64,000 nucleotides of DNA from Octopus vulgaris (lineage: Eukaryota): the NCBI GenBank assembly GCA_951406725.2, contig OX597817.1, positions 48,422,001 through 48,486,000 on the forward strand. The letters are read 5' to 3'. Position numbers and translations under genes: made by a program. The notes beneath the pieces were generated by a model, which was not told where the DNA came from, did not search any database, and saw only the letters and a program-made list of their open reading frames with translations. Each line of letters begins with the position of its first letter. Within the stretch, counting starts at the first letter, position 1. Shown here one piece after another: positions 8,885-48,903 of this stretch.

Positions 8885-9385
8885 ATAATAAAACAAATGG
8901 TTTATACCAGGTAGCTTACTGGTAAAGCACAGTTACTTTCACAGTAATCGTTAGGTAAATAACAAATGAAAGACGGAAGATGGAATATACGAGAATATAT
9001 TATTAATCACAACAATTGTTTTGACATATCTAGTATCGACTCCTCTTGTGGGACACACAAAAACTGGTACAGGAGCATCCGGCGGTGCGGATGTATCTCG
9101 TCGGGTGATAAATAAATAAAACATCTCGTTAAAGTAACAGTTCCATAATGCAGCTCTTCGCTTTGCAGAGAGACAAACAGCTAGACTGAGGAAGATTTGT
9201 CATATATATATAGAAGATCCAAAAATAAAATTTCAGAAGACAAAAAGAGAAATGAACACTTAATCCAGTGAGAAAAGTATTGAAAATAACCGTAAACAAG
9301 GGGAGTCAGTGCTAGATGTGTCGAAACAATTGTTGTGATTAATAATATATTCCTGTAGATTCCATCTTCTGTCTTTTATTTGTTA
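8885..9385 (-). mobile_element. (TA)n-flanked PLE-like terminus with ~90-bp inverted arms (8960-9048 / 9297-9385) and degenerate hammerhead at 9005-9110
   Basis: Minus strand atcac-CCGACGA-gatacatc...gatatgtc-aaaac aatt GTT-gtgat; the inverted arm retains GAAAC. Confidence 0.6.
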
Positions 9386-9635: not shown

Positions 9636-10014
9636 TGGCAACTGTACTAGTGGAGTGCTAAGAGCACCAATTTGAGTGTGATCATTGCCAGAGCAACAAA
9701 CTGGCTTCCGTGCTGGTGTCATGTAAAAAGCACCATTTGAGCATGATCGTTACCAGCGTCACCTTACTGGCACTTGTGCCGGTGGCATGTGGAAAAACAT
9801 TTGAGCGAGATCATTGCCAGTACCGTCTGACTGGCCCTTGTGCTGGTGGCATGTAAAAGTACCCACTACACTCTCGGAGTGGTTGGCATTAGGAAGGGTA
9901 TCCAGCTGTAGAAACTCTGCCAGATCAGATTGGAGCCTGGTGCAGCCATCTGGTTCGCCAGTCCTCAGTCAAATCGTCCAATCCATGCCAGCATAAAAAG
10001 CAGACGTTAAATGA

Positions 10015-10189
<175 letters not shown>

Positions 10190-10484
10190 TCCCTCTCTCT
10201 CTCTCTCGGAGAGGCACAAGCACCTACACACACATATACACACACAACAGTAACTTCCGCCTACCAAATTCAATCACAAAGCTTCGGTCGGCCCGGAACT
10301 ATAGCAGAAGACACTTGCCCAAAGTGTCACATGGTGGGACTGAACCCAAAACCATGTATCTAGGAAGTAGAGGTAATTAATGTCCTCAGTTTTTGATTCA
10401 CCTTTGCTCTAATTAAATATTCTAAATGATCTGAGATACTCATCCCGTCCTGGTTTTGTTTTCCTTTTCCGTCAATATATACCT

Positions 10485-10710
10485 ATTTCTTTATTACCCA
10501 CAAGGGGCTAAACACAGAGGGAACAAACAAGGACAGACATAGGTATTAAGTCGATTACATCGACCCCAGTTCGTAACTGGTACTTAATTTATCGACCCCG
10601 AAAGGATGAAAGGCAAAGTCGACCTCGGCGGAATTTGAACTCACAACGTAACGCAGACGAAATACTGCTAAGCATTTCGCCCGGCGTGCTAACGTTTCTG
10701 CCAGCTCGCC
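10485..10710 (-). mobile_element. SINE family B, young copy with 14-bp TSD gtcaatatatacct (10471-84 / 10711-24). Other copies: 1942-2155, 23633-23850, 25745-25967, 26788-27020, 29841-30072, 38615-38820, 62352-62540
   Basis: Head gagctggcagaaacgttagc, B-box gagttcaaattcc, body gactttgcctttcatcctttcggggtcgat; TSDs visible. Confidence 0.9.
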
Positions 10711-11338
10711 GTCAATATATACCTGCTGACTCGGATGCCTACAACGGATCCCTAGCTTCAGCCCCAGCTGTGAGCTTGGAACCTAACAGATGACTAATTA
10801 TAGCCCTCATGCAGCTTACCAATTAGTTTACACCATCGGTGAACTAAAACCCCTCATATCCTTTCTATATATTTCATGGAGGCAATGGCCGTGACGTGTA
10901 ACCTGCACAGCAGCAGAGATAATGGATGAAAGATTTGTGTCCCAGAAGGGCATCAGTTGAGTCCATGGAGCCAGAAAAATTGTTTGGTGAGTTTTTGTAT
11001 TATTTGATAGTATCTAAGGAAGCATAAGGCAGTAAGTTGGAAGAATCGTTACTGTTCCAGACAAAATGCTTAATGGTATTTCTTTCAGCTCTGAGTTCAA
11101 ATACCGCTGAGGTTGACTTTGCTTTTCATTCTTACAGGATTGATAAAATAAGTACTGGCAAAGTACAGGCACAAAAGTGGCTGTGTGGTAAGTAGCTTGC
11201 TTACCAACCACATGGTTCTGGGTTCATTCCCACTCCGTGGCACCTTGGGCGTCTTCTACTATAGCCTCGGGCCGACCAAAGCTTTTTGAGTGGATTTGGT
11301 AGACAGAAACTGAAAGAAGCCCATCATATATATGTATA

Positions 11339-11434
<96 letters not shown>

Positions 11435-11462
11435 TATATATGTATATATATATATATATATG

Positions 11463-11512
<50 letters not shown>

Positions 11513-11513
11513 G

Positions 11514-11600
<87 letters not shown>

Positions 11601-11683
11601 GGTCCCGGGTTGATTCGGGGTTAACCACAGTAAGTAAGGTACTCAATACATAGCAGAGTAAAATTAATTTATTATATAGAAGG

Positions 11684-11734
11684 AGCTTCTACAGGACTAG
11701 TACTGTTTCATTCAAGAGAAATCTTCAGGAAGCT
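11684..11734 (-). ncRNA. Identical hammerhead motif, sense to the ACSL pre-mRNA
   Basis: Exact reverse complement of 14524-14574. Confidence 0.75.
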
Positions 11735-12074
11735 ATTTAACAAGAATTGTATTAGCATTTATACATTTAGGCAGGTTTAAAGGAGTGGTGGTGGGGGACT
11801 TTTGGGGGTAGGCATAGCGCAAAATATCATACTTGGGGGAGTGGTCAAGGAGTCAGTGGTAAGTTAGATGAAAGAATAGATAAATAAAAAAATAAAAAAA
11901 TAAAAAAATAAAAAATATATATAAAAAAATATATATATAAAAATATATATATAAAAAAATATATATATAAAAAAAAGGGGGGATAGAGTTATAGGTAAAT
12001 AAGGAGATTCTCACTTATACCTATACACACATGTATACGTATCTACACACACATACATACATACACATATATAT

Positions 12075-12113
<39 letters not shown>

Positions 12114-12999
12114 TATACATATACATATATACACACATACATACATATCTACATACACACATACATACACCCGCCCACATATACAAATTTATACACATGC
12201 ACATGCCTATACCTGTCTACACATACACACACGTATATATGCATACACTCACTCCCATGCATGCACGCATACACACATGTATATATATATATATATATAC
12301 CCACGACCACACATACATATATACACATAAAAATATATATTCATACGCACATACACTCATGCACACACAACACACCCAGTTCCCTATATACACATATTTA
12401 CACCTATATATACATACACCCACATACACCTATGTACACATATATATATATAAACATATACACGCATACATATATATACATGTGTGCACATACATACATA
12501 CACACATATATACATACACATACACATGTGTACCTATACATACCTACACATACACACATACATACATACAAATATACATATACATATATATATATACAAT
12601 CCAATACAGGCCCATTCCCTAATTTTAATTTTATTATCTTCATTTATTACTTTTGTTATCTTTGATCGCTAGAGCTAAGAATCCTGGCAATGGCTGCATG
12701 TCCATTTGTCTGTCTACTAGAAGGCAAGTACTCATTCCCGCACGCACACTCATTAGCACGTACATTCACCCATTCGTACACTCATACACATACACGTACG
12801 CACGCGTTATATTCATACATACAAACATCTACATACGTTCACGTATATACACATACGTACTCGTACCTACAGATTCGTGTCTACACTTTAGGAGGCTAGT
12901 CTATACATATACACCAATAAATATACATATATATATATATATATACCCACATATACATACACACACACACATATATACTCATACATACAGATACATACC

Positions 13000-13063
<64 letters not shown>

Positions 13064-13241
13064 TACACATACACACATACATATACACACACATACATAC
13101 ACATATATATACATACACAAACATATATACACACATATATATATACGTACACACATACACACATACATACGTATACATACATACATACATCCATACATCC
13201 ATACTTACATGCATTTATACGCATACACACACCCATCTATA

Positions 13242-13292
<51 letters not shown>

Positions 13293-14143
13293 ATGTATAT
13301 GTGGGTATATATATATATATATATGTATATTTATTGGTGTATATGTATAGACTAGCCTCCTAAAGTGTAGACACGAATCTGTAGGTACGAGTACGTATGT
13401 GTATATACGTGAACGTATGTAGATGTTTGTATGTATGAATATAACGCGTGCGTACGTGTATGTGTATGAGTGTACGAATGGGTGAATGTACGTGCTAATG
13501 AGTGTGCGTGCGGGAATGAGTACTTGCCTTCTAGTAGACAGACAAATGGACATGCAGCCATTGCCAGGATTCTTAGCTCTAGCGATCAAAGATAACAAAA
13601 GTAATAAATGGAGATAATAAAATTAAAATTAGGGAATGGGCCTGTATTGGATTGTATATATATATATGTATATGTATATTTGTATGTATGTATGTGTGTA
13701 TGTGTAGGTATGTATAGGTACACATGTGTATGTGTATGTGTATGTATATATGTGTGTATGTATGTATGTGCACACATGTATATATATGTATGCGTGTATA
13801 TGTTTATATATATATATGTGTACATAGGTGTATGTGGGTGTATGTATATATAGGTGTAAATATGTGTATATAGGGAACTGGGTGTGTTGTGTGTGCATGA
13901 GTGTATGTGCATATGAATATATATTTTTATGTGTATATATGTATGTGTGGTCGTGGGTATATATATATATATATATACATGTGTGTATGCGTGCATGCAT
14001 GGGAGTGAGTGTATGCATATATACGTGTGTGTATGTGTAGACAGGTATAGGCATGTGCATGTGTATAAATTTGTATATGTGGGCGGGTGTATGTATGTGT
14101 GTATGTAGATATGTATGTATGTGTGTATATATGTATATGTATA

Positions 14144-14182
<39 letters not shown>

Positions 14183-14523
14183 ATATATATGTGTATGTAT
14201 GTATGTGTGTGTAGATACGTATACATGTGTGTATAGGTATAAGTGAGAATCTCCTTATTTACCTATAACTCTATCCCCCCTTTTTTTTATATATATATTT
14301 TTTTATATATATATTTTTATATATATATATTTTTTTATATATATTTTTTATTTTTTTATTTTTTTATTTTTTTATTTATCTATTCTTTCATCTAACTTAC
14401 CACTGACTCCTTGACCACTCCCCAAGTATGATATTTTGCGCTATGCCTACCCCCAAAAGTCCCCCACCACCACTCCTTTAAACCTGCCTAAATGTATAAA
14501 TGCTAATACAATTCTTGTTAAAT

Positions 14524-14574
14524 AGCTTCCTGAAGATTTCTCTTGAATGAAACAGTACTAGTCCTGTAGAAGCT
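14524..14574 (+). ncRNA. Type I hammerhead ribozyme motif
   Basis: agcttc-CTGAAGA-t ttc tctt gaa t-GAAA-cag tactagtc ctg-TA-gaagct: stems I and III pair, stem II has a U.U closing mismatch, GUA cleavage triplet. Confidence 0.75.
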
Positions 14575-14612
14575 CCTTCTATATAATAAATATATATATA
14601 TATATATATATG

Positions 14613-14745
<133 letters not shown>

Positions 14746-15967
14746 ATGTTTGTGTGTCTGTGTTTATGCCCCCACGATGGTGGTGTGTTTACATCCCTGT
14801 AACTTAGCGGTTCAGCAAAAGAGACCGAATAAGAGAAGAATAAGTCCTGGGATCGATTTACTCAACTAAAGGTGGTGCTCCAGCATGGCCACAGTCAAAT
14901 GACTGAAACAAGTAAAAGAGAGTACTACGGTTGCTATACTCAATTCTTCCGCCCTGAAAATTGCTGGTCTATGCTAAAGTTAGAAATTATTTGAAACTGG
15001 TATAAATCTTGAGAAAGTATCTCTTTTAGACATATAGTGTTAAAAACATAGAAAAATATCAGCAGCTGGTGAAGTTCATCAGCATTAGTGGTGGAATTGC
15101 TGGATCTGGTCAGCTTCTTCAGCAGCAGATTTGCTGCTTAGAAAGAATATGAAGGGAAGTGTAGAAGATGATGGGGCACTGTGTGGCCATGTTAATGATA
15201 ACACCTGGTGAGGAATTGTTTGTTCCTTATGCCTAGCCCATAAGGGCCGGTTTGCTGGTTTCGTTGGCATATAAGTTCCCCACCTTGACGGGACGCCGGT
15301 CCATCACAGATAAGTTGCTAGATGCAGGAGGAAAGAGTGAGAGAAAGTTGTGGTGAAAGAGTCAGCAAAAGTTCGCCATTAGCTTCTGCCGGAGCCGCGT
15401 GGAGCTTAGGTTTTTTCGCTCATAAACACACACATCGCCCGGTCTGAGATTCGAACCCACGATCCCTCGACCACGAGTCTGCTGCTCTAACCACTAGGCC
15501 ATGTGCCTCCACTACCTGGTGAGGAATGCCTAGTGATAACCCTTGTGGCAGGACAAACTCTATAAAAGGTCCCAATGAGATAAGAAATAATATTAAACTG
15601 GGTAGTGTAATGTACCAACTCCCTTCTGTCAACTAAAAGATAGGGGCTCTCTATACCCCACATAACAGGATGAAATTAGGCAATGCAGCATCAGTCAAAT
15701 GATGTTCCATGACCAGATAAGAGCATATCAATGATGCACATTAATAATTTCTTGTGTGAATATATTAATTGATAAATCGTTTTAGGGGTGAAAGTTGGTC
15801 TGTGTTTAGCAGCTATCAGTGAATTTTCTGCACAGGATATTATTGATGTTTTGTAAACAACTTGCACATGTGTGTGCTGCCAGTTGAGTGCACCACATAC
15901 TGCCTACCCCAGGTAAATAAAAATAAAAACAGGCAAAAATACAAAAGTAATTAACTGTAATACTTAC

Positions 15968-16000
15968 AACTAATTCTTCTAAATTATTTTTACCCATTTC
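15968..16000 (-). CDS. ACSL: ACSL coding exon 7 (33 nt; EMGKNNLEELV)
   Basis: ttattttcag / gtaagt; corresponds to the short xLGxxN exon of vertebrate ACSLs. Confidence 0.88.
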
Positions 16001-16052
16001 CTGAAAATAAATAAAGTTGAAATAATGAAATATGAAAGTCAAAGATATAGAA

Positions 16053-16089
<37 letters not shown>

Positions 16090-16428
16090 TTAGGAAATAT
16101 TAGGAGTACTGGAATTGGTTTTAATCAACTGTGACTCCTAACCCTAAAATATGTGAAATTGTACTGAAAATATTAATTTGAAGACTTAGGTGTTTGTCTT
16201 GTCTGATAGAATTGTTTTGTGTACAATGATCTTTTTTCAATTAAGTTGTTTCAGTCATTAGACTGTGGCCATGCTGGGGCACTAACCAGAAGAATTTTAG
16301 CTGAATGAATCAACCCCAGTCCTTAATATTTTAAAGCCTGCTACTTGTTCTATCAATCTCTTTTGCTGGACTGCAAAGCTACGGGGATATAAACACACCA
16401 ACACTGGCTGTCAATTGTTGGGGGAGTA

Positions 16429-16459
<31 letters not shown>

Positions 16460-17350
16460 GATGGGTTCCTTTCAGTTTCTGTTTACCAAATCCATTCTCA
16501 AAGCTTTGGTCAGCCTGAGGCTACACCTGAAGACACTTGCCCAATGTTCCACAAAGTGGGGTTGAACCTAGAACCTTTTGGTTGGGAAGCAAGCTTCTTA
16601 ATTCTTTATTGCCCACAAGGGGCTAAACATAGAGGGGGCAAACAAGGACAGACATAGGTATTAAGTCAACTACATCGACCCCAGTGCATAACTGTTACTT
16701 AATTTATTGACCCTGAAAGGATGAAAGGCAAAGTTGACCTTGGCGGAATTTGAACTCAGAACATAAAGACAGACGAAATACCTACTTCTTTACTATCTAC
16801 AAGGAGCTAAATACTGAAGGGACAAACAAGGACAGACAAATGGATTAAGTCGATTATATCGACCCCAGTGTGTAACTGGTACTTATTTAATCAACCCCAA
16901 AAGGATGAAAGGCAAAGTTGACCTCGGCGGAATTTGAACTCAGAATGTAAAGAGAGAAGAAATACTGCTAAGCATTCTCACCAAGTGCGCTAACATTTCT
17001 GCCAGCTCACCGCCTTTATTGACCAATACCAGAATAGTATACTGACCAAACTATTCTGTCTGACCTGATCTGGCCTCTCACACTGACCCTAAAAAATCAT
17101 TCTAAAAATAAACACTGACATCATCAATATCTCAATGTTATGAGATAATGCATAATCAATTCAAAACAATGTGAATGAAAAAGCATTACATTTGACGGAG
17201 TAATTAGAATGTTATTTGGTTGCATTAAAATAGTATCCAGCATTCTGAGGAAATTCTTATGCTCTTCTTACACCACAAATATTTCTATTTTAGAGAGGGC
17301 AAAATTTGAAAAGTTTTCTGTGTCATAAGGTTGTCAAAAAATTCAGCTGC

Positions 17351-35920: not shown

Positions 35921-35990
<70 letters not shown>

Positions 35991-35994
<4 letters not shown>

Positions 35995-37150
35995 AATAGT
36001 AAAGAGTGAAAAAACTACAGAAGGATTAAATGTTAAAAAATATATATATTTGCGTCAATATGTCTGAAGAATATTAGAAAATTAAAAAAAAAATTTTTTT
36101 TCCCTCTTATAATGACATAATTTAAAAGAAAGACCGGTTTCGCGTGTAGCTTTTCAAATTTCTTGCGACGTTATGTTTATGTTGAATAGAGTTTTCGTTA
36201 TGTTTATGTTCAGGAGAGTTCTAAATAAGGGAAGGTAGTGAGTGATTTCTTCCGGTGTAAGGGAGATAATCGCTTTAAAATTTTTTCCTTTCCCTTGGTG
36301 TGAATTTCTCTGTATCGGTATGTTCGGATGGTTGAGTCTGGGCTTGTACTTTTCAATGAAGAATGTTTCCTTGTTTAGTATAATTTGTGTTGATGATCCG
36401 AAAGCACATTGGTAAAATGGAAATTGTGGTAGTAGTTGCTTTGCGCATTTCTCAATGTGCTCACTAAAAGGTATCATTCTATATTCTGGGAATGCAATCT
36501 GTTGTCGATGCAGTGTGCATCTACGTCTGAGTGATAGTCCCGTGGAACCCACGTAGTCTTGGTAGCAGCCCGAGCATTTTATGACATAAATTATGTTTTC
36601 AGAGGCACAAGTAAAGTTAGATTTGATCTTGAATTTCTGTCCCTCTTTAAAGAGGAATTCCGATCCTTCTAGCAGGTTAGGACATGTTGCACAGTTCGAT
36701 CTACCACATTTTTTTACTTTTGCATCCGTAATTTCAGAAGACAATTTTGCCTTTGTGAGAATCTTTTTGAGTGATTTAAGCTGTTTGTAGCTTTTAATGA
36801 TTTGGTGTATGTTTAGAATTTCCTTTAATTTGGGGTCTTTATGAAGTATTGGTAAATTCTGGGTGATGATGGTGAAGGCTTCTTTGTTTCTGGGGTTGTA
36901 TGTAGATATGTAAGGTAGTATTTTCGGGGAAAGTGTGTGGTTGTGTTGAACTTTTCTTAAAGTTTCTATGTTGATTTCTGTTGCACGTCTGATCCCATCC
37001 TCTATGAGTTGAGCTGGGTAATGTCTGTCAATTAGGGTGTTTTTGAGTTCTTGCAGTCTAAAGTTCCTGGTATTTTGTTCTGACACTATTGTGCATGTCC
37101 TTCTTGCAAGGTTGAAGGGGATGTTTGTTTTAGTGTGTCTTGGGTCAACT
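35991..37150 (-). mobile_element. Penelope-like element (Neptune-type) 3' portion: end of RT, Cys-rich linker and GIY-YIG endonuclease (ORF 36154..37086)
   Basis: KCGRSNCATC, NIIYVIKCSGC..DYVGST..LRRR..H, E..FI...P.LN; degenerate hammerhead 36126-36164; microsatellite flanks. Confidence 0.9.
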
Positions 37151-37156
37151 TTCTTG

Positions 37157-37242
<86 letters not shown>

Positions 37243-43348: not shown

Positions 43349-43669
43349 ATATGCATGCATATATGGGTACAGGACATCAAAAAAAAAAAAGAAACGTTGA
43401 ACACAATGAGAAATGAAAACATAAAAACAAAAATATAGAAACGAACTTTTTTTCGAATAACGAAAAAACAAATAGAGAAACGAGACATACAATATAAAGA
43501 ATATTTCCCTTCTTCAATTGTCCCTGTTTCATGGATTTTTTTGCGGAGGGTGAAATTGGTAACAAGAACAGGACAGTGAGAAAAAAATATATATATATGT
43601 GACCGCGTGTGTACCGTTGGCGATTTTTTCCCCTCCGTCTTCCTTTCTTTGGATCTTTCCTTTTCCTAT

Positions 43670-43704
43670 GTTTCTGACGAAGAGCTCTGCTCGAAACGTT
43701 AAAC
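43670..43704 (+). ncRNA. Minimal hammerhead ribozyme motif (PLE type) within a (TA)n-flanked insert 43585-43795
   Basis: gttt-CTGACGA-a-gagc tct gctc-GAAAC-GTT-aaac; palindromic AACGTT replaces the stem III loop. Confidence 0.75.
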
Positions 43705-43814
43705 CCTCCTTTCCTGAGCGTTGAATAATACTATACTTGTTCCACGTCCTCGTGTTGTTGTGTTTTCTCTTTGTGTTTTCAAGTTTGGATTAACTATATA
43801 TGTATGTATGTATG

Positions 43815-44149: not shown

Positions 44150-44720
44150 CATGTTTATTAAACAATTACAACAAGCTGATAGTGACTTCAAAGTTTACGC
44201 CTGTTGGCCTTTGTCAGGCTGTGAAGCATTTATGTATAGTAATGCCCTTAATATAAATAAAATATTATACATATATACACACATATATATACGGTAAAAA
44301 AATAACTTTACATGTTTTTCAAGGAATTTCATATTCGCTATCAGGTGTGAAGGCTGTAATGAAGATTACGTAGGTCAAACAAAGCTTAACATTAGGAAAC
44401 TACACTGCCAACAACCTAAAATTTTAGCCATAAGATTACATACAAACCACTCCTGTTCACTCTCCCGTCAGACAGATTAAATGCCTTGTTTATAACTAAA
44501 CATGTTCAGTCAACCGTGTTGGCCTTCTTTGACACTAACGCACCTAATATACTGTCACATGACGCCAAAAGGTTCATACTCTACAAACATTTGACAGAAA
44601 ACATTCAGAGCATTGGAAATGTTCAGTCAACTGTGTCAGCCTTCACTTACGACCATCAACTTGCGCCAGAGCATAAGCTTCGAGAAGGCCGGACAGCCGG
44701 ATTTCTTCAGACGTTTGGAG
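44150..44720 (+). mobile_element. Degenerate Neptune-type PLE GIY-YIG fragment preceded by an inverted terminus
   Basis: 44298-44400 reads KNNFTCFSRNFIFAIRCEGCNEDYVGQTKL, matching ORF 36154; minus-strand hammerhead relic 44175-44220. Confidence 0.7.
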
Positions 44721-45129
44721 GTTTTCTTGGTAATATACTATTTACTATTTTACTTGTTTCAGTCATTTGACTGCGGCCATGCCGGAGCACTGCCTTTAGT
44801 CGAGCAAATCGACCCCAGAACTTATTCCTCGTAAGTCTAGTACTTATTGTATCGGTCTCTTTTACCGAACCGCTAAGTTACGGGGACGTAAATACACTAG
44901 CATCAGTTGTCAAGCGATGTTGGGGGGGGGGACAAACACAGACACACAAACACACACATATATACAGTTTCTGTCTACCAAATCCACTCACAAGGCTTTG
45001 GTCAGCCTAAGGCTATAGTAGAAGACACTTGCCCAAAGTGCCACGCAGTGGGACTGAACCCGGAACCATGTGGTTGGTAAGCAAGCTACTTACCACACAG
45101 CCACTCCTGCGCCTTGATCTTTAATTCTA

Positions 45130-46623
45130 GTGGGCAACTGGATTGACATCTTCGATGCAAGATTTTATTGTGTGGGGTTAGCTGTTAAAAGAGGAGGGTA
45201 CAAAAGCCTCGCAAACCTGCTCAGACACTTCCAACAGTCTGACAGATACCGATTTGGATTTCCCGAATGTGGACGTAGACGAACCGCATCGGGTTATGTA
45301 GGTCGTATCTAGATAGAGTTTTCTGTAGACCAGTAGATTAGGGTAGCATAAGTTGTCCACTGTTTAAAGACGTCGGCTATACAGAACGTAAATTTGTGAT
45401 CGACCTAGATAGGCTGTTTTGGTATGGAACCGGTTACTGGAAGCTGAAAGCGTCGCACCCGGAATGCCAAGCTTACAGAGACCGTATTAGCGAACTGGAT
45501 AAGCGGGCGTTGACGGAACAATCGGCAACAACAAATGGTGGTTTTCCCTGAAAAGAGCAATTAGGTTGATGAATCGATTAGGTTGATGAACTGTGAATAG
45601 GGAAAGTGTCTGGTTTGGATGGTCTGCCCTACTAGCTTTACTATTATGTTTCAGACTTGCTTGGAGGCCTCTTAGCAGGTGTCTACTACAACTGTCAGCA
45701 GAACGGGAGAATTCCTAGTTCTCTGAGTCGAGGAGCAGTGGTATTGCTAAAGAAGGACCCAAACAAGAGAGATCAATTAGAAAATTTTAGGCCTATAACT
45801 CTGCTGACGAAGATTTCAAAATTTTGGCCAAGGTGTTAGCAAAGAGGGTGGCGTTTGTCGTCGAGGAACTGACTCGTGATGTGCAAACATGCGCCATCCA
45901 AAGTAGATCTATCGATGACAACCTCCACCTTGTACGATACACCGGTGGTTAAAGAATTTGTCATGAGTGAGGCCCTGATCAATTTGGATCAGTCAAAAGT
46001 CTGCGATAGGGTCAACCACCAATATTTAACGGCCATTCTCACGACGGCTTGTCTTGATCCCGTTTTCCGTGGCTAGATTGCCGCAAAGTACAACCACATC
46101 TATTCGGTAGTTCGAATGAATGGCTACGTATCAGAAGCATTCAGCATCATGCGCTAGGTTCGTCAAGGTAGACCCTTCGTGTTTCTTTTGTATGTACTGG
46201 CTCTAGAGCCACTACTGCGGAAATTAGAGACGTTGAGAGATATCCTGCGTAAGCTAGTACGAGGGAGATCCGTGCTACTACAAGCAACAATGTTTTTAGT
46301 AGACGGTCTATTTCCACATTTACTCTTATCTTTTCAGCTCAGTTTGCAAGCTTGGTACCTGTAGTTCTCATTGCTCCAACAACAAATACAACATTCACCT
46401 TTAGGCCTATAACTCTGCTGACGATTTCAAAATTTTAGCCAAGGTGTTAGCAAAGAGGTTGGCGTTTGTTGTCGAGGAACTGACTGGTGATGTGCAAACA
46501 TGCACCATCCAAAGTAGATCTGTCGATGACAACCTCCACCTTGTACGATACACCGGTGGTTAAAGAAGTTGTCATGTGTGAGGCCCTGATCAATTTGGAT
46601 CAGTCAAAAGTCTGCGATAAGGT
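45130..46623 (+). mobile_element. Degenerate Tx1/L1-like LINE RT, with duplicated segment 45788-46012 / 46400-46623
   Basis: LLKKDP...ENFRPITLL, LDQSK..DRV.H, VRQG.P..LYVLALEPLL. Confidence 0.85.
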
Positions 46624-47373: not shown

Positions 47374-48217
47374 CTAGCAGAATTGCCCGGCGTTGCTCGG
47401 GACTGAATTGCTTGAAAGTACTGTTAATGATTGCACTGAATTATGATGATTATTCAGGCAAATATTGATATAAGTTTACGGTGGGAGATAAGGACTTAAC
47501 GATCAAACGTGTGCCATTGCATTGTTTTGGGGGAACCAAATTTCTGATGAGCATTATAGGGGCACCAACTTTAAGTTTGAGAAAGTGTGGTGGTAGTCCG
47601 GGGTGCTCAAAGGAATTGAGTACCTCTATTGGATAGTTGATGACGTCCTCTGGGTCAGGAGTTGTATCGATAGACTGATATACATAGACTTCCCCAGGAA
47701 TGAGTTTTAGCATTTCATCATTAATATGGTGAACAGTTTTATTCCTCGGAGCCAGTATAGCCTTTTTGCCAATCCAATCCATATTCTGATAATTAGCTTG
47801 TAGATCTGGGAACACTGCATCTCTGAGATCAGAAGGCGTCGTAACAATGGTACAAATGGAATCGATGGCAATATTACCATTTTCATCCCCTGGTATTTTG
47901 CCTTCGCCAAGTTCAAGGAGGGTGTGAGGAAATGCTGCTGATGTGATATTACGTCGCATATGAGCACGCATATTGGTGTGAAGTTTGAGAGTTACTTCCC
48001 TTTATTTAAAAAAATATGCATTAAAATGGAAAAAATTATGGTAAATTATTTGTAAAATCATAGACTCATCGTAGACGCGCGCTAATACCCAGAAGGGCTC
48101 GATATGAATCACGACTATAAGATACCCGGTTTTGGTTAAACTGCATCGCAAAATGTGGGAGTAGTTAGGAATCTAAATCGGAGTAGACAGACACACAACC
48201 TTTCTTTTATATATAAA
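47374..48217 (-). mobile_element. Non-autonomous Helitron carrying a PIF1-helicase fragment (ORF 47450..47971)
   Basis: AILAPRN, GLPPH.L.LKVGAPIML.RNL...CNGTRL; 3' hairpin cccgagcaacgccggg then CTAG|T; 5' tttatatataaaag. Confidence 0.92.
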
Positions 48218-48903
48218 TATTTTCGTCCTAAAAAACTTTGTATGGATTGAATGGTTACCTCTATGGAAATATATACACGCACATTATACATACATGTGTG
48301 TATAGATGAATATATAAATACATTTAAATATCTATATACACTTTTGGGCGATCTTTCTGTTTCTTAGAGATAACTTTAGATCTTATTTTCGTCCTAAAAA
48401 ACTTTGTATGGAGTGAATGGTTACCTCTATGGAAATATATACACACACGTTATACATACATGTGTACATAGATGAATATATAAATACATTTATATATCTA
48501 TATACACTTTTGGTCGATCTTTGTGCTACTTAGAGATAACTTTAGATCTTATTTTCGTCCTAAAAAACTTTGTGCGGAGTGAATGGTTACGTCTATGGAA
48601 ATATATACACACACATTATACATACATCTGTGTATAGATGAATATATAAATACATTTAAATATCTATATACACTTTTGGGCGATCTTTGTGCTACTTAGA
48701 GATAACTTTAGATCTTATATTCGTCCTAAAAAACTTTGTATGGAGTGAAAGGTTACCTCTATGGAAATATATACACCCACATTATACATACATCTGTGTA
48801 TAGATGAATATATAAATACATTTAAATATCTATATACACTTTTGAGCGATCTTTCTGCTACTTGGATATACTTTAGGTCTTATATTCGTCCTAAAAAACT
48901 TTC
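48218..48903. repeat. 166-bp tandem repeat, ~4.1 copies
   Basis: cgtcctaaaaaact at 48224, 48390, 48556, 48722, 48887. Confidence 0.95.

Follow-up and report, generated by a model that had tools for sequence, protein, structure and literature searches.

The insertions left by Penelope-like elements (PLEs) follow a recurrent pattern. Those compiled in PMC8557442 are 5'-truncated, often have a second, truncated copy in inverted orientation at their 5' end, carry a tail at one end only and are biased toward microsatellites, and the insertions described from Adineta have the same structure (PMC3846280). The Octopus PLEs in File S1 of PMC8557442 favour (TA)n, and among the Hydra-clade families of its Files S1 and S2, Penelope-13_HM is a 3,045-bp element with a (TA)n target, an inverted copy at nt 1-966 and a hammerhead on each strand. 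Nearby hammerhead pairs on opposite strands were also reported in Schistosoma (PMC4209133). The metazoan PLE hammerheads assayed in PMC4209133 and PMC11167929 showed weak cleavage, cleaved as dimers or needed the PLE protein to do so; a single motif of related type showed no cleavage in the in vitro assays of the former, and the Anolis motif required the protein and left no cleavage ends in the RNA-seq of the latter. The Anolis protein cuts AT-rich DNA and extends both strands, two internal start sites delimiting the tail (PMC11167929). Self-priming was proposed for PLEs in PMC3846280, and the origin of inverted one-tailed insertions is stated as open in PMC8557442.

The window examined here, a 64-kb stretch of Octopus vulgaris DNA, contains a unit (11598-14591) whose head-to-head, one-tailed layout is an already published kind of PLE insertion footprint. 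Self-BLAST and global alignment delimited a left arm of 1,305 nt (11667-12971, minus strand) and a right arm of 1,312 nt (13280-14591, plus strand) around a centre of 308 nt. The arms were 99.8% identical by substitutions (0.15% divergence), differing by two substitutions, at 12346/13911 (in a CpG context) and 12640/13611, and by three indels (1, 2 and 6 nt), all located within homopolymer or microsatellite runs. This agrees with the original prediction, which had placed a near-perfect palindrome at 11667-~12972 and ~13275-14591 and had noticed about two substitutions, at exactly these left-arm positions, plus repeat-length differences. Both substitutions are transitions, A/G on the sense strand of the element; an ADAR imprint was considered for them and rejected, as there are only two, one of them at a CpG, and they resemble ordinary transitions. 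When the window was filtered for inverted pairs with arms of at least 100 nt, identity of at least 80% and a gap of at most 2 kb, five pairs were retained, and none of the other four came close to the 11667-14591 palindrome in length or perfection (they measured 125-364 nt, with 80-91% identity).

The unit is asymmetric. Its left end carries 69 extra nt (11598-11666, minus strand) without a counterpart on the right, and end comparison identified them as a tail, the 3' extension of the longer copy, which occurs once within the 64-kb window. In the palindrome centre CA outnumbered TG by 66 to 1, the strand bias of the left arm, indicating that the centre is the 5' continuation of the longer left copy; the spacer of about 300 bp that had been predicted was thus right in size, but is not a separate spacer. 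Accordingly, the longer copy runs on the minus strand from ~13240 to 11598 and comprises the unpaired centre (12972-13237), the left arm, which is the part common to both copies, and the tail, with its 3' end 86 nt beyond the hammerhead. The shorter copy is the right arm itself, plus-strand, 5'-truncated and tail-less, and ends 17 nt beyond its hammerhead. Between them, TRF (Tandem Repeats Finder) and sequence inspection placed a TA run at the head-to-head junction (13238-13279). The right copy starts where the left one carries TATATA, and the junction is likely a microhomology join. The end sequence of the element was present in two copies in the window, both inverted, with no direct pLTR or partial tandem, and TRF detected no period above 64 nt in 10000-16500. 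A direct pLTR or partial tandem is optional in truncated PLE copies.

The sequences flanking the unit are the 5' half (11176-11325, plus strand; 85-89% identical to the corresponding halves of the best sister copies found there) and the 3' half (14736-14920, plus strand) of one dispersed SINE-like repeat, which the original prediction called SINE-A. The two halves lie collinear and in the same orientation, and are 78-89% identical to their best sister copies, which have a short TA/TG run at the insertion position; here, TRF delimited a (TA)n target split by the unit into a left tract of 272 nt (11326-11597) and a right tract of 144 nt (14592-14735). A target-site duplication is unreadable within (TA)n. 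Splice-site inspection and tblastn identified two minus-strand exons, one upstream (16000-15968) and one downstream (7464-7411, encoding the AMP-binding P-loop), with AG/GT ends and corresponding to consecutive residues 200-228 of Octopus bimaculoides ACSL5, which was also the best homologue (96%) of one exon. The unit therefore lies within an 8.5-kb intron of a minus-strand ACSL5 gene, to which its left arm is sense and its right arm antisense. Both the placement inside the (TA)n of a SINE-type repeat and that in the ACSL intron between the exons at 15968 and 7464 had been predicted correctly. A short match to the start of an upstream ACSL5 exon (9 of 11 residues) was seen elsewhere in the host intron (9340-9372, minus strand), and a similar frame near 8970 (plus strand); the match may be an exon fragment or due to chance.

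A descriptor scan of the window detected a type I hammerhead motif near each outer end of the unit, at 14524-14574 on the plus strand and at 11734-11684 on the minus strand, the latter being sense in the ACSL5 pre-mRNA. The motif has a stem I of 6 bp, all the core bases, a stem II of 3 bp over a U.U, a stem III of 4 bp and the cleavage triplet GUA, with a predicted cut after 14568 (plus) and after 11690 (minus). At a stem I of at least 6 bp and a stem III of at least 4 bp the pair gave the only two matches in the window, and none appeared in 60 dinucleotide shuffles, supporting the predicted hammerhead at each outer end. Rfam, which had been proposed as a check, did not recognise the motif: no family matched in the window at gathering thresholds, and the 142 matches obtained at E<=10 in 11300-15000 included no hammerhead, nearly all being miRNA models on microsatellites. 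The U.U stands at the base of stem II, where the G10.1-C11.1 consensus pair given in PMC4209133 is absent. Loop III comprises 8 nt with an internal palindrome, and stem III plus its loop is self-complementary at 14 of 16 positions (-15.2 kcal/mol between two molecules), and by this folding estimate could pair between molecules as in dimer-dependent PLE motifs, although the pre-mRNA carries a single sense copy. An AATAAA (11673-11668) lies directly 3' of the minus-strand hammerhead. At 14495-14525 (plus strand), and in its left-arm mirror, a TATA-like hexamer is accompanied by a branch-point-like pentamer and by an AG ending exactly at the 5' end of stem I; a similar arrangement has been described for the D. 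virilis Penelope intron (PMC4209133). The acceptor-like motif was rejected as evidence of an intron, given that the window contains 84 such motifs. The left copy presents it, together with the AATAAA, in the sense of the ACSL5 pre-mRNA, both within the duplex formed by the arms.

We consider it very probable that an endonuclease-dependent PLE gave rise to the unit in one recent integration event, its target being the (TA)n tract within an older SINE-like repeat of the ACSL5 intron. The link to PLEs made in the original prediction was supported by the inverted 5'-truncated copy, the one-sided tail, the hammerheads and the (TA)n target. Neither reverse transcriptase (RT) nor GIY-YIG remnants appeared in the three-frame translation of the element, and when 13 relatives of an endonuclease relic located nearby were used as tblastn queries, 11598-14591 was without a match. 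Membership therefore rests on non-coding features, and the PLE clade is unproven in an element lacking an RT or endonuclease ORF. Such an ORF is expected to be missing from a 5'-truncated or non-autonomous copy, and the unit is possibly a non-autonomous PLE derivative. No second copy was found elsewhere in the 64-kb window. Pattern scans of 73 metagenome and 12 viral loci produced chance matches (best BLAST E=0.2; marginal structure in 1/85). Words of the right arm were found in at least 20 sequencing runs among the 24 listed, 17 of them with at least half of the 136 words, and the runs came from seven studies (six apart from the possible source); since part of the words are simple repeats, these matches show only arm-like sequence in other samples, not the palindrome or its copy number. 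None of the runs listed with arm words was an RNA run, and the matches carry no information on expression.

The hammerhead comparison was confined to the Hydra clade, of which File S2 of PMC8557442 lists 25 families. By hand count, the core-U...U-GAA layout with a U.U at the base of stem II was present in 14 of the 25 families, and a stem III identical to that of the unit in four, suggesting at the sequence level that the layout is closest to the Hydra clade, although a (TA)n target and a canonical hammerhead are not exclusive to it. Of 24 families (Penelope-18, whose motif is listed near the 5' end, was left out), 10 have a consensus end at most 45 nt beyond stem I and 12 have theirs 60-150 nt beyond it, which fits two end sites like the 17 and 86 nt of the unit, in an indirect comparison between different families. 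Eight short motifs of the element had no match in the PMC8557442 supplement, a weak test on text with wrapped lines and shortened long runs, and by eye the 3' end displayed there before the Naiad_Ovul record differs from that of the unit. We did not find the Octopus family of the unit in the one PLE collection searched (Files S1-S2 and the consensus text of PMC8557442).

Several other elements were observed in the window. A 5'-truncated PLE with a C-terminal endonuclease (35990-37200, minus strand) is located in a different ACSL5 intron, where TA runs flank it, and has the same orientation as the gene. It contains a 335-aa open frame with a Cys-rich linker, which suggests by sequence the Neptune/Nematis type, and a GIY-YIG-like region whose relatives match Pfam GIY-YIG; an apparent decayed hammerhead was seen by eye at 36165-36125, and no nucleotide similarity to the palindromic element was detected. 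A second, unrelated hammerhead-like motif (43669-43725, plus strand) lies in a single-copy block of ~440 nt between TA runs (43361-43800), which probably represents the 3' terminus of a different PLE family. At 44298-44471 (plus strand) there is a broken GIY-YIG endonuclease relic, for which a word-indexed homologue search yielded nothing, while the full HMMER search yielded 13 relatives, with Pfam GIY-YIG in three of the five scanned; near 44215 and 44710, inspection by eye of the minus strand showed degenerate hammerhead-like cores. An open frame of 183 aa (47453-48001, minus strand), which contains a Pif1 2B domain (E 2.5e-15) and is adjoined by a tandem repeat of ~166 bp (48218-48902), is likely a Helitron relic, and short frames at 45118-46073 (plus strand) resemble by eye a decayed LINE reverse transcriptase, with no relevant Pfam match. 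Two inverted pairs within the ACSL5 transcription unit, 16653-17016/18923-19285 (86%) and 769-927/1737-1895 (91%), could form dsRNA too.

Two routes to the insertion may be envisaged, both starting with a PLE protein that would cut the AT-rich target. Both target strands could prime cDNA, one from a distal and one from a proximal internal start site, and the tailed and tail-less cDNAs would then anneal by TA microhomology. Alternatively, a single cDNA could snap back on its own TATATA and serve as its own template as far as the tail boundary, a route akin to the self-priming suggested in PMC3846280. The data from this locus fit two-template priming and snap-back alike and do not separate them; in a young family with 1.3-kb arms, arm differences collected over many loci could tell one from the other. 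The substitution divergence between the arms (0.15%), set against host-repeat halves only 78-89% identical to their sister copies, indicates that the insertion is recent, although gene conversion between the arms could lower its apparent age.

Transcription of the minus-strand gene meets the antisense copy first, as had been proposed. In the minimum-energy fold of a 3,031-nt pre-mRNA segment, all the nucleotides of the sense hammerhead (51/51) were paired to the antisense copy, so the proposed pairing of the antisense arm with the sense ribozyme stands as a folding prediction; the local duplex reached -92.9 kcal/mol against -7.3 kcal/mol for the hammerhead fold. When the antisense arm was omitted, folding predicted the active secondary structure at 2% for the minimal motif and at ~1e-4 for 200-240 nt of native context, its predicted competitor being a hairpin across the cleavage site. 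Read-through of a head-to-head PLE meets the antisense copy first in either direction; masking is therefore a by-product for which no selection is needed. A-to-I editing was simulated under 14 settings (rates of 0-100%, inosine either read as G or left unpaired, 300 molecules per setting) with a nearest-neighbour model that has no inosine parameters and leaves helicases and the PLE protein outside. In each of the 14 settings, none of the 300 edited molecules combined five intact core adenosines with a duplex weaker than -15 kcal/mol. Even with every antisense A made non-pairing, the most favourable case, the duplex remained at -34.2 kcal/mol. A-to-I changes in its core kill a hammerhead.

The structure of the unit lends itself to other explanations. 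Had the same young element inserted twice, independently and head to head, into one long (TA)n tract, the central TA run would be leftover target; the TA run at the junction, the differences between the arms and the repeated use of (TA)n as a PLE target in this window all agree with this. Such a history, however, requires two hits ~40 nt apart, in opposite orientation and from near-identical templates; it is also opposed by the start of the right copy at a TA microhomology with the left one and by the complementary tailed and tail-less ends, the published signature of one event (PMC8557442, PMC3846280), and we regard it as improbable. A fold-back of reads or assembly, with one arm only in the genome, is very improbable: it would mirror the flanks, whereas the flanks seen here are collinear and come from different halves of one repeat; moreover, only one side bears the tail, the ACSL5 exons stay in order across the site and two transitions, one at a CpG, separate the arms. 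In its favour are the near-identity of the arms by substitutions, the fact that three of the five differences involve run length, as sequencing errors typically do, and the trouble that complex PLE insertions are known to cause in assemblies (PMC8557442). The long inverted arms, the absence of an ORF and the TA target would also suit a hammerhead-carrying element of another kind, either a retrozyme or a fold-back or MITE-type DNA transposon whose terminal inverted repeats are very long. The termini of the unit nevertheless differ by 69 nt and its centre continues one arm, contrary to the DNA transposon; non-LTR retrozymes, as described in 10.64898/2026.07.22.740005, are direct tandem repeats with a hammerhead in each unit, whereas no period above 64 nt was present in 10000-16500 and the two ends of the unit are inverted, leaving either origin extremely unlikely.

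The remaining alternative concerns function. The original prediction saw in the unit a possible editing-sensitive cleavage switch: with the hammerhead silenced by the antisense arm, editing by ADAR would free it for cleavage of the ACSL5 pre-mRNA. In favour of this, the geometry is correct and folding predicts the masking; squid repeats undergo heavy editing, which outside coding regions concentrates on them (PMC9068888), and an intronic ribozyme can tune its host mRNA, as in CPEB3 (PMC10274809). The simulation did not bear the switch out, for no molecule was freed with an intact core under any setting and the most weakened duplex (-34.2 kcal/mol) was still more stable than the hammerhead fold (-7.3 kcal/mol). 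Moreover, the active fold is predicted to be rare even when the antisense arm is absent, any head-to-head PLE would produce the masking, the insertion is very young, and the related single motif and the Anolis motif were, respectively, without cleavage in vitro and protein-dependent in the studies cited above (PMC4209133, PMC11167929). The exapted switch is accordingly most unlikely, and the same holds for a version in which ADAR, with helicases or the PLE protein, would expose an active, masked hammerhead in some tissues and tune ACSL5 mRNA. Were the switch model correct, the unit would constitute a natural ribozyme gated by editing, of which a literature full-text search found no case, a weak result limited to the titles and abstract starts of the best 12 of 23 matches.

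Nothing in the evidence shows conservation of the very young unit, and for the host gene the PLE insertion is most likely a passenger. By analogy with the squid data, ADAR could plausibly act on the near-perfect duplex of 1.3 kb, and the pre-mRNA hairpin of ~1.3 kb is probably A-to-I edited, hiding the ribozyme and the AATAAA without regulated cleavage. It is conceivable, if rather doubtful, that intronic inverted PLE insertions are tolerated because their own ribozyme and poly(A) signal are masked; the inverted form should then be enriched genome-wide among intronic copies sense to the host gene.

Compared with known systems, the unit resembles the intronic CPEB3 ribozyme (PMC10274809) in having a self-cleaving motif in a long intron, in the sense of the host and blockable by antisense pairing; the CPEB3 ribozyme, however, is HDV-like, conserved and active, with a measured effect (PMC10274809), whereas the motif described here is young, transposon-borne, a predicted poor folder and predicted to be permanently masked. 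With the metazoan PLE hammerheads in PMC4209133 it shares the type I arrangement, a complete core, a palindromic helix III region and U-rich 5' and AU-rich 3' flanks; it departs from them in lacking G10.1-C11.1, in its short stem II (3 bp) and in a 4-bp stem III that can form in the monomer too. Head-to-head ends, an optional tail at one end, a microhomology junction and an AT-rich target are also described for Adineta Pen2a/Pen2 (PMC3846280) and Anolis Poseidon PAc (PMC11167929). Relative to these endonuclease-positive (EN+) PLEs, the unit has a longer tail (69 nt vs 30-40 nt) and longer arms (1.3 kb vs pLTRs of ~200 bp) according to the same sources, and has no readable target-site duplication. 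It differs from the Hydra-clade PLEs in having no ORF, in carrying at least 1.5 kb of microsatellite-rich non-coding DNA upstream of the hammerhead and in a loop III of 8 nt, against 1-3 nt in the Hydra-clade rows; the hammerhead of Hydra-1_Obim also differs by eye from that of the unit. Within this clade, Penelope-13_HM, as recorded in Files S1 and S2 of PMC8557442, is like the unit in its length of ~3 kb, its inverted 5'-truncated copy of ~1 kb and its opposite-strand hammerheads near the outer ends, and is the closest precedent of the unit.
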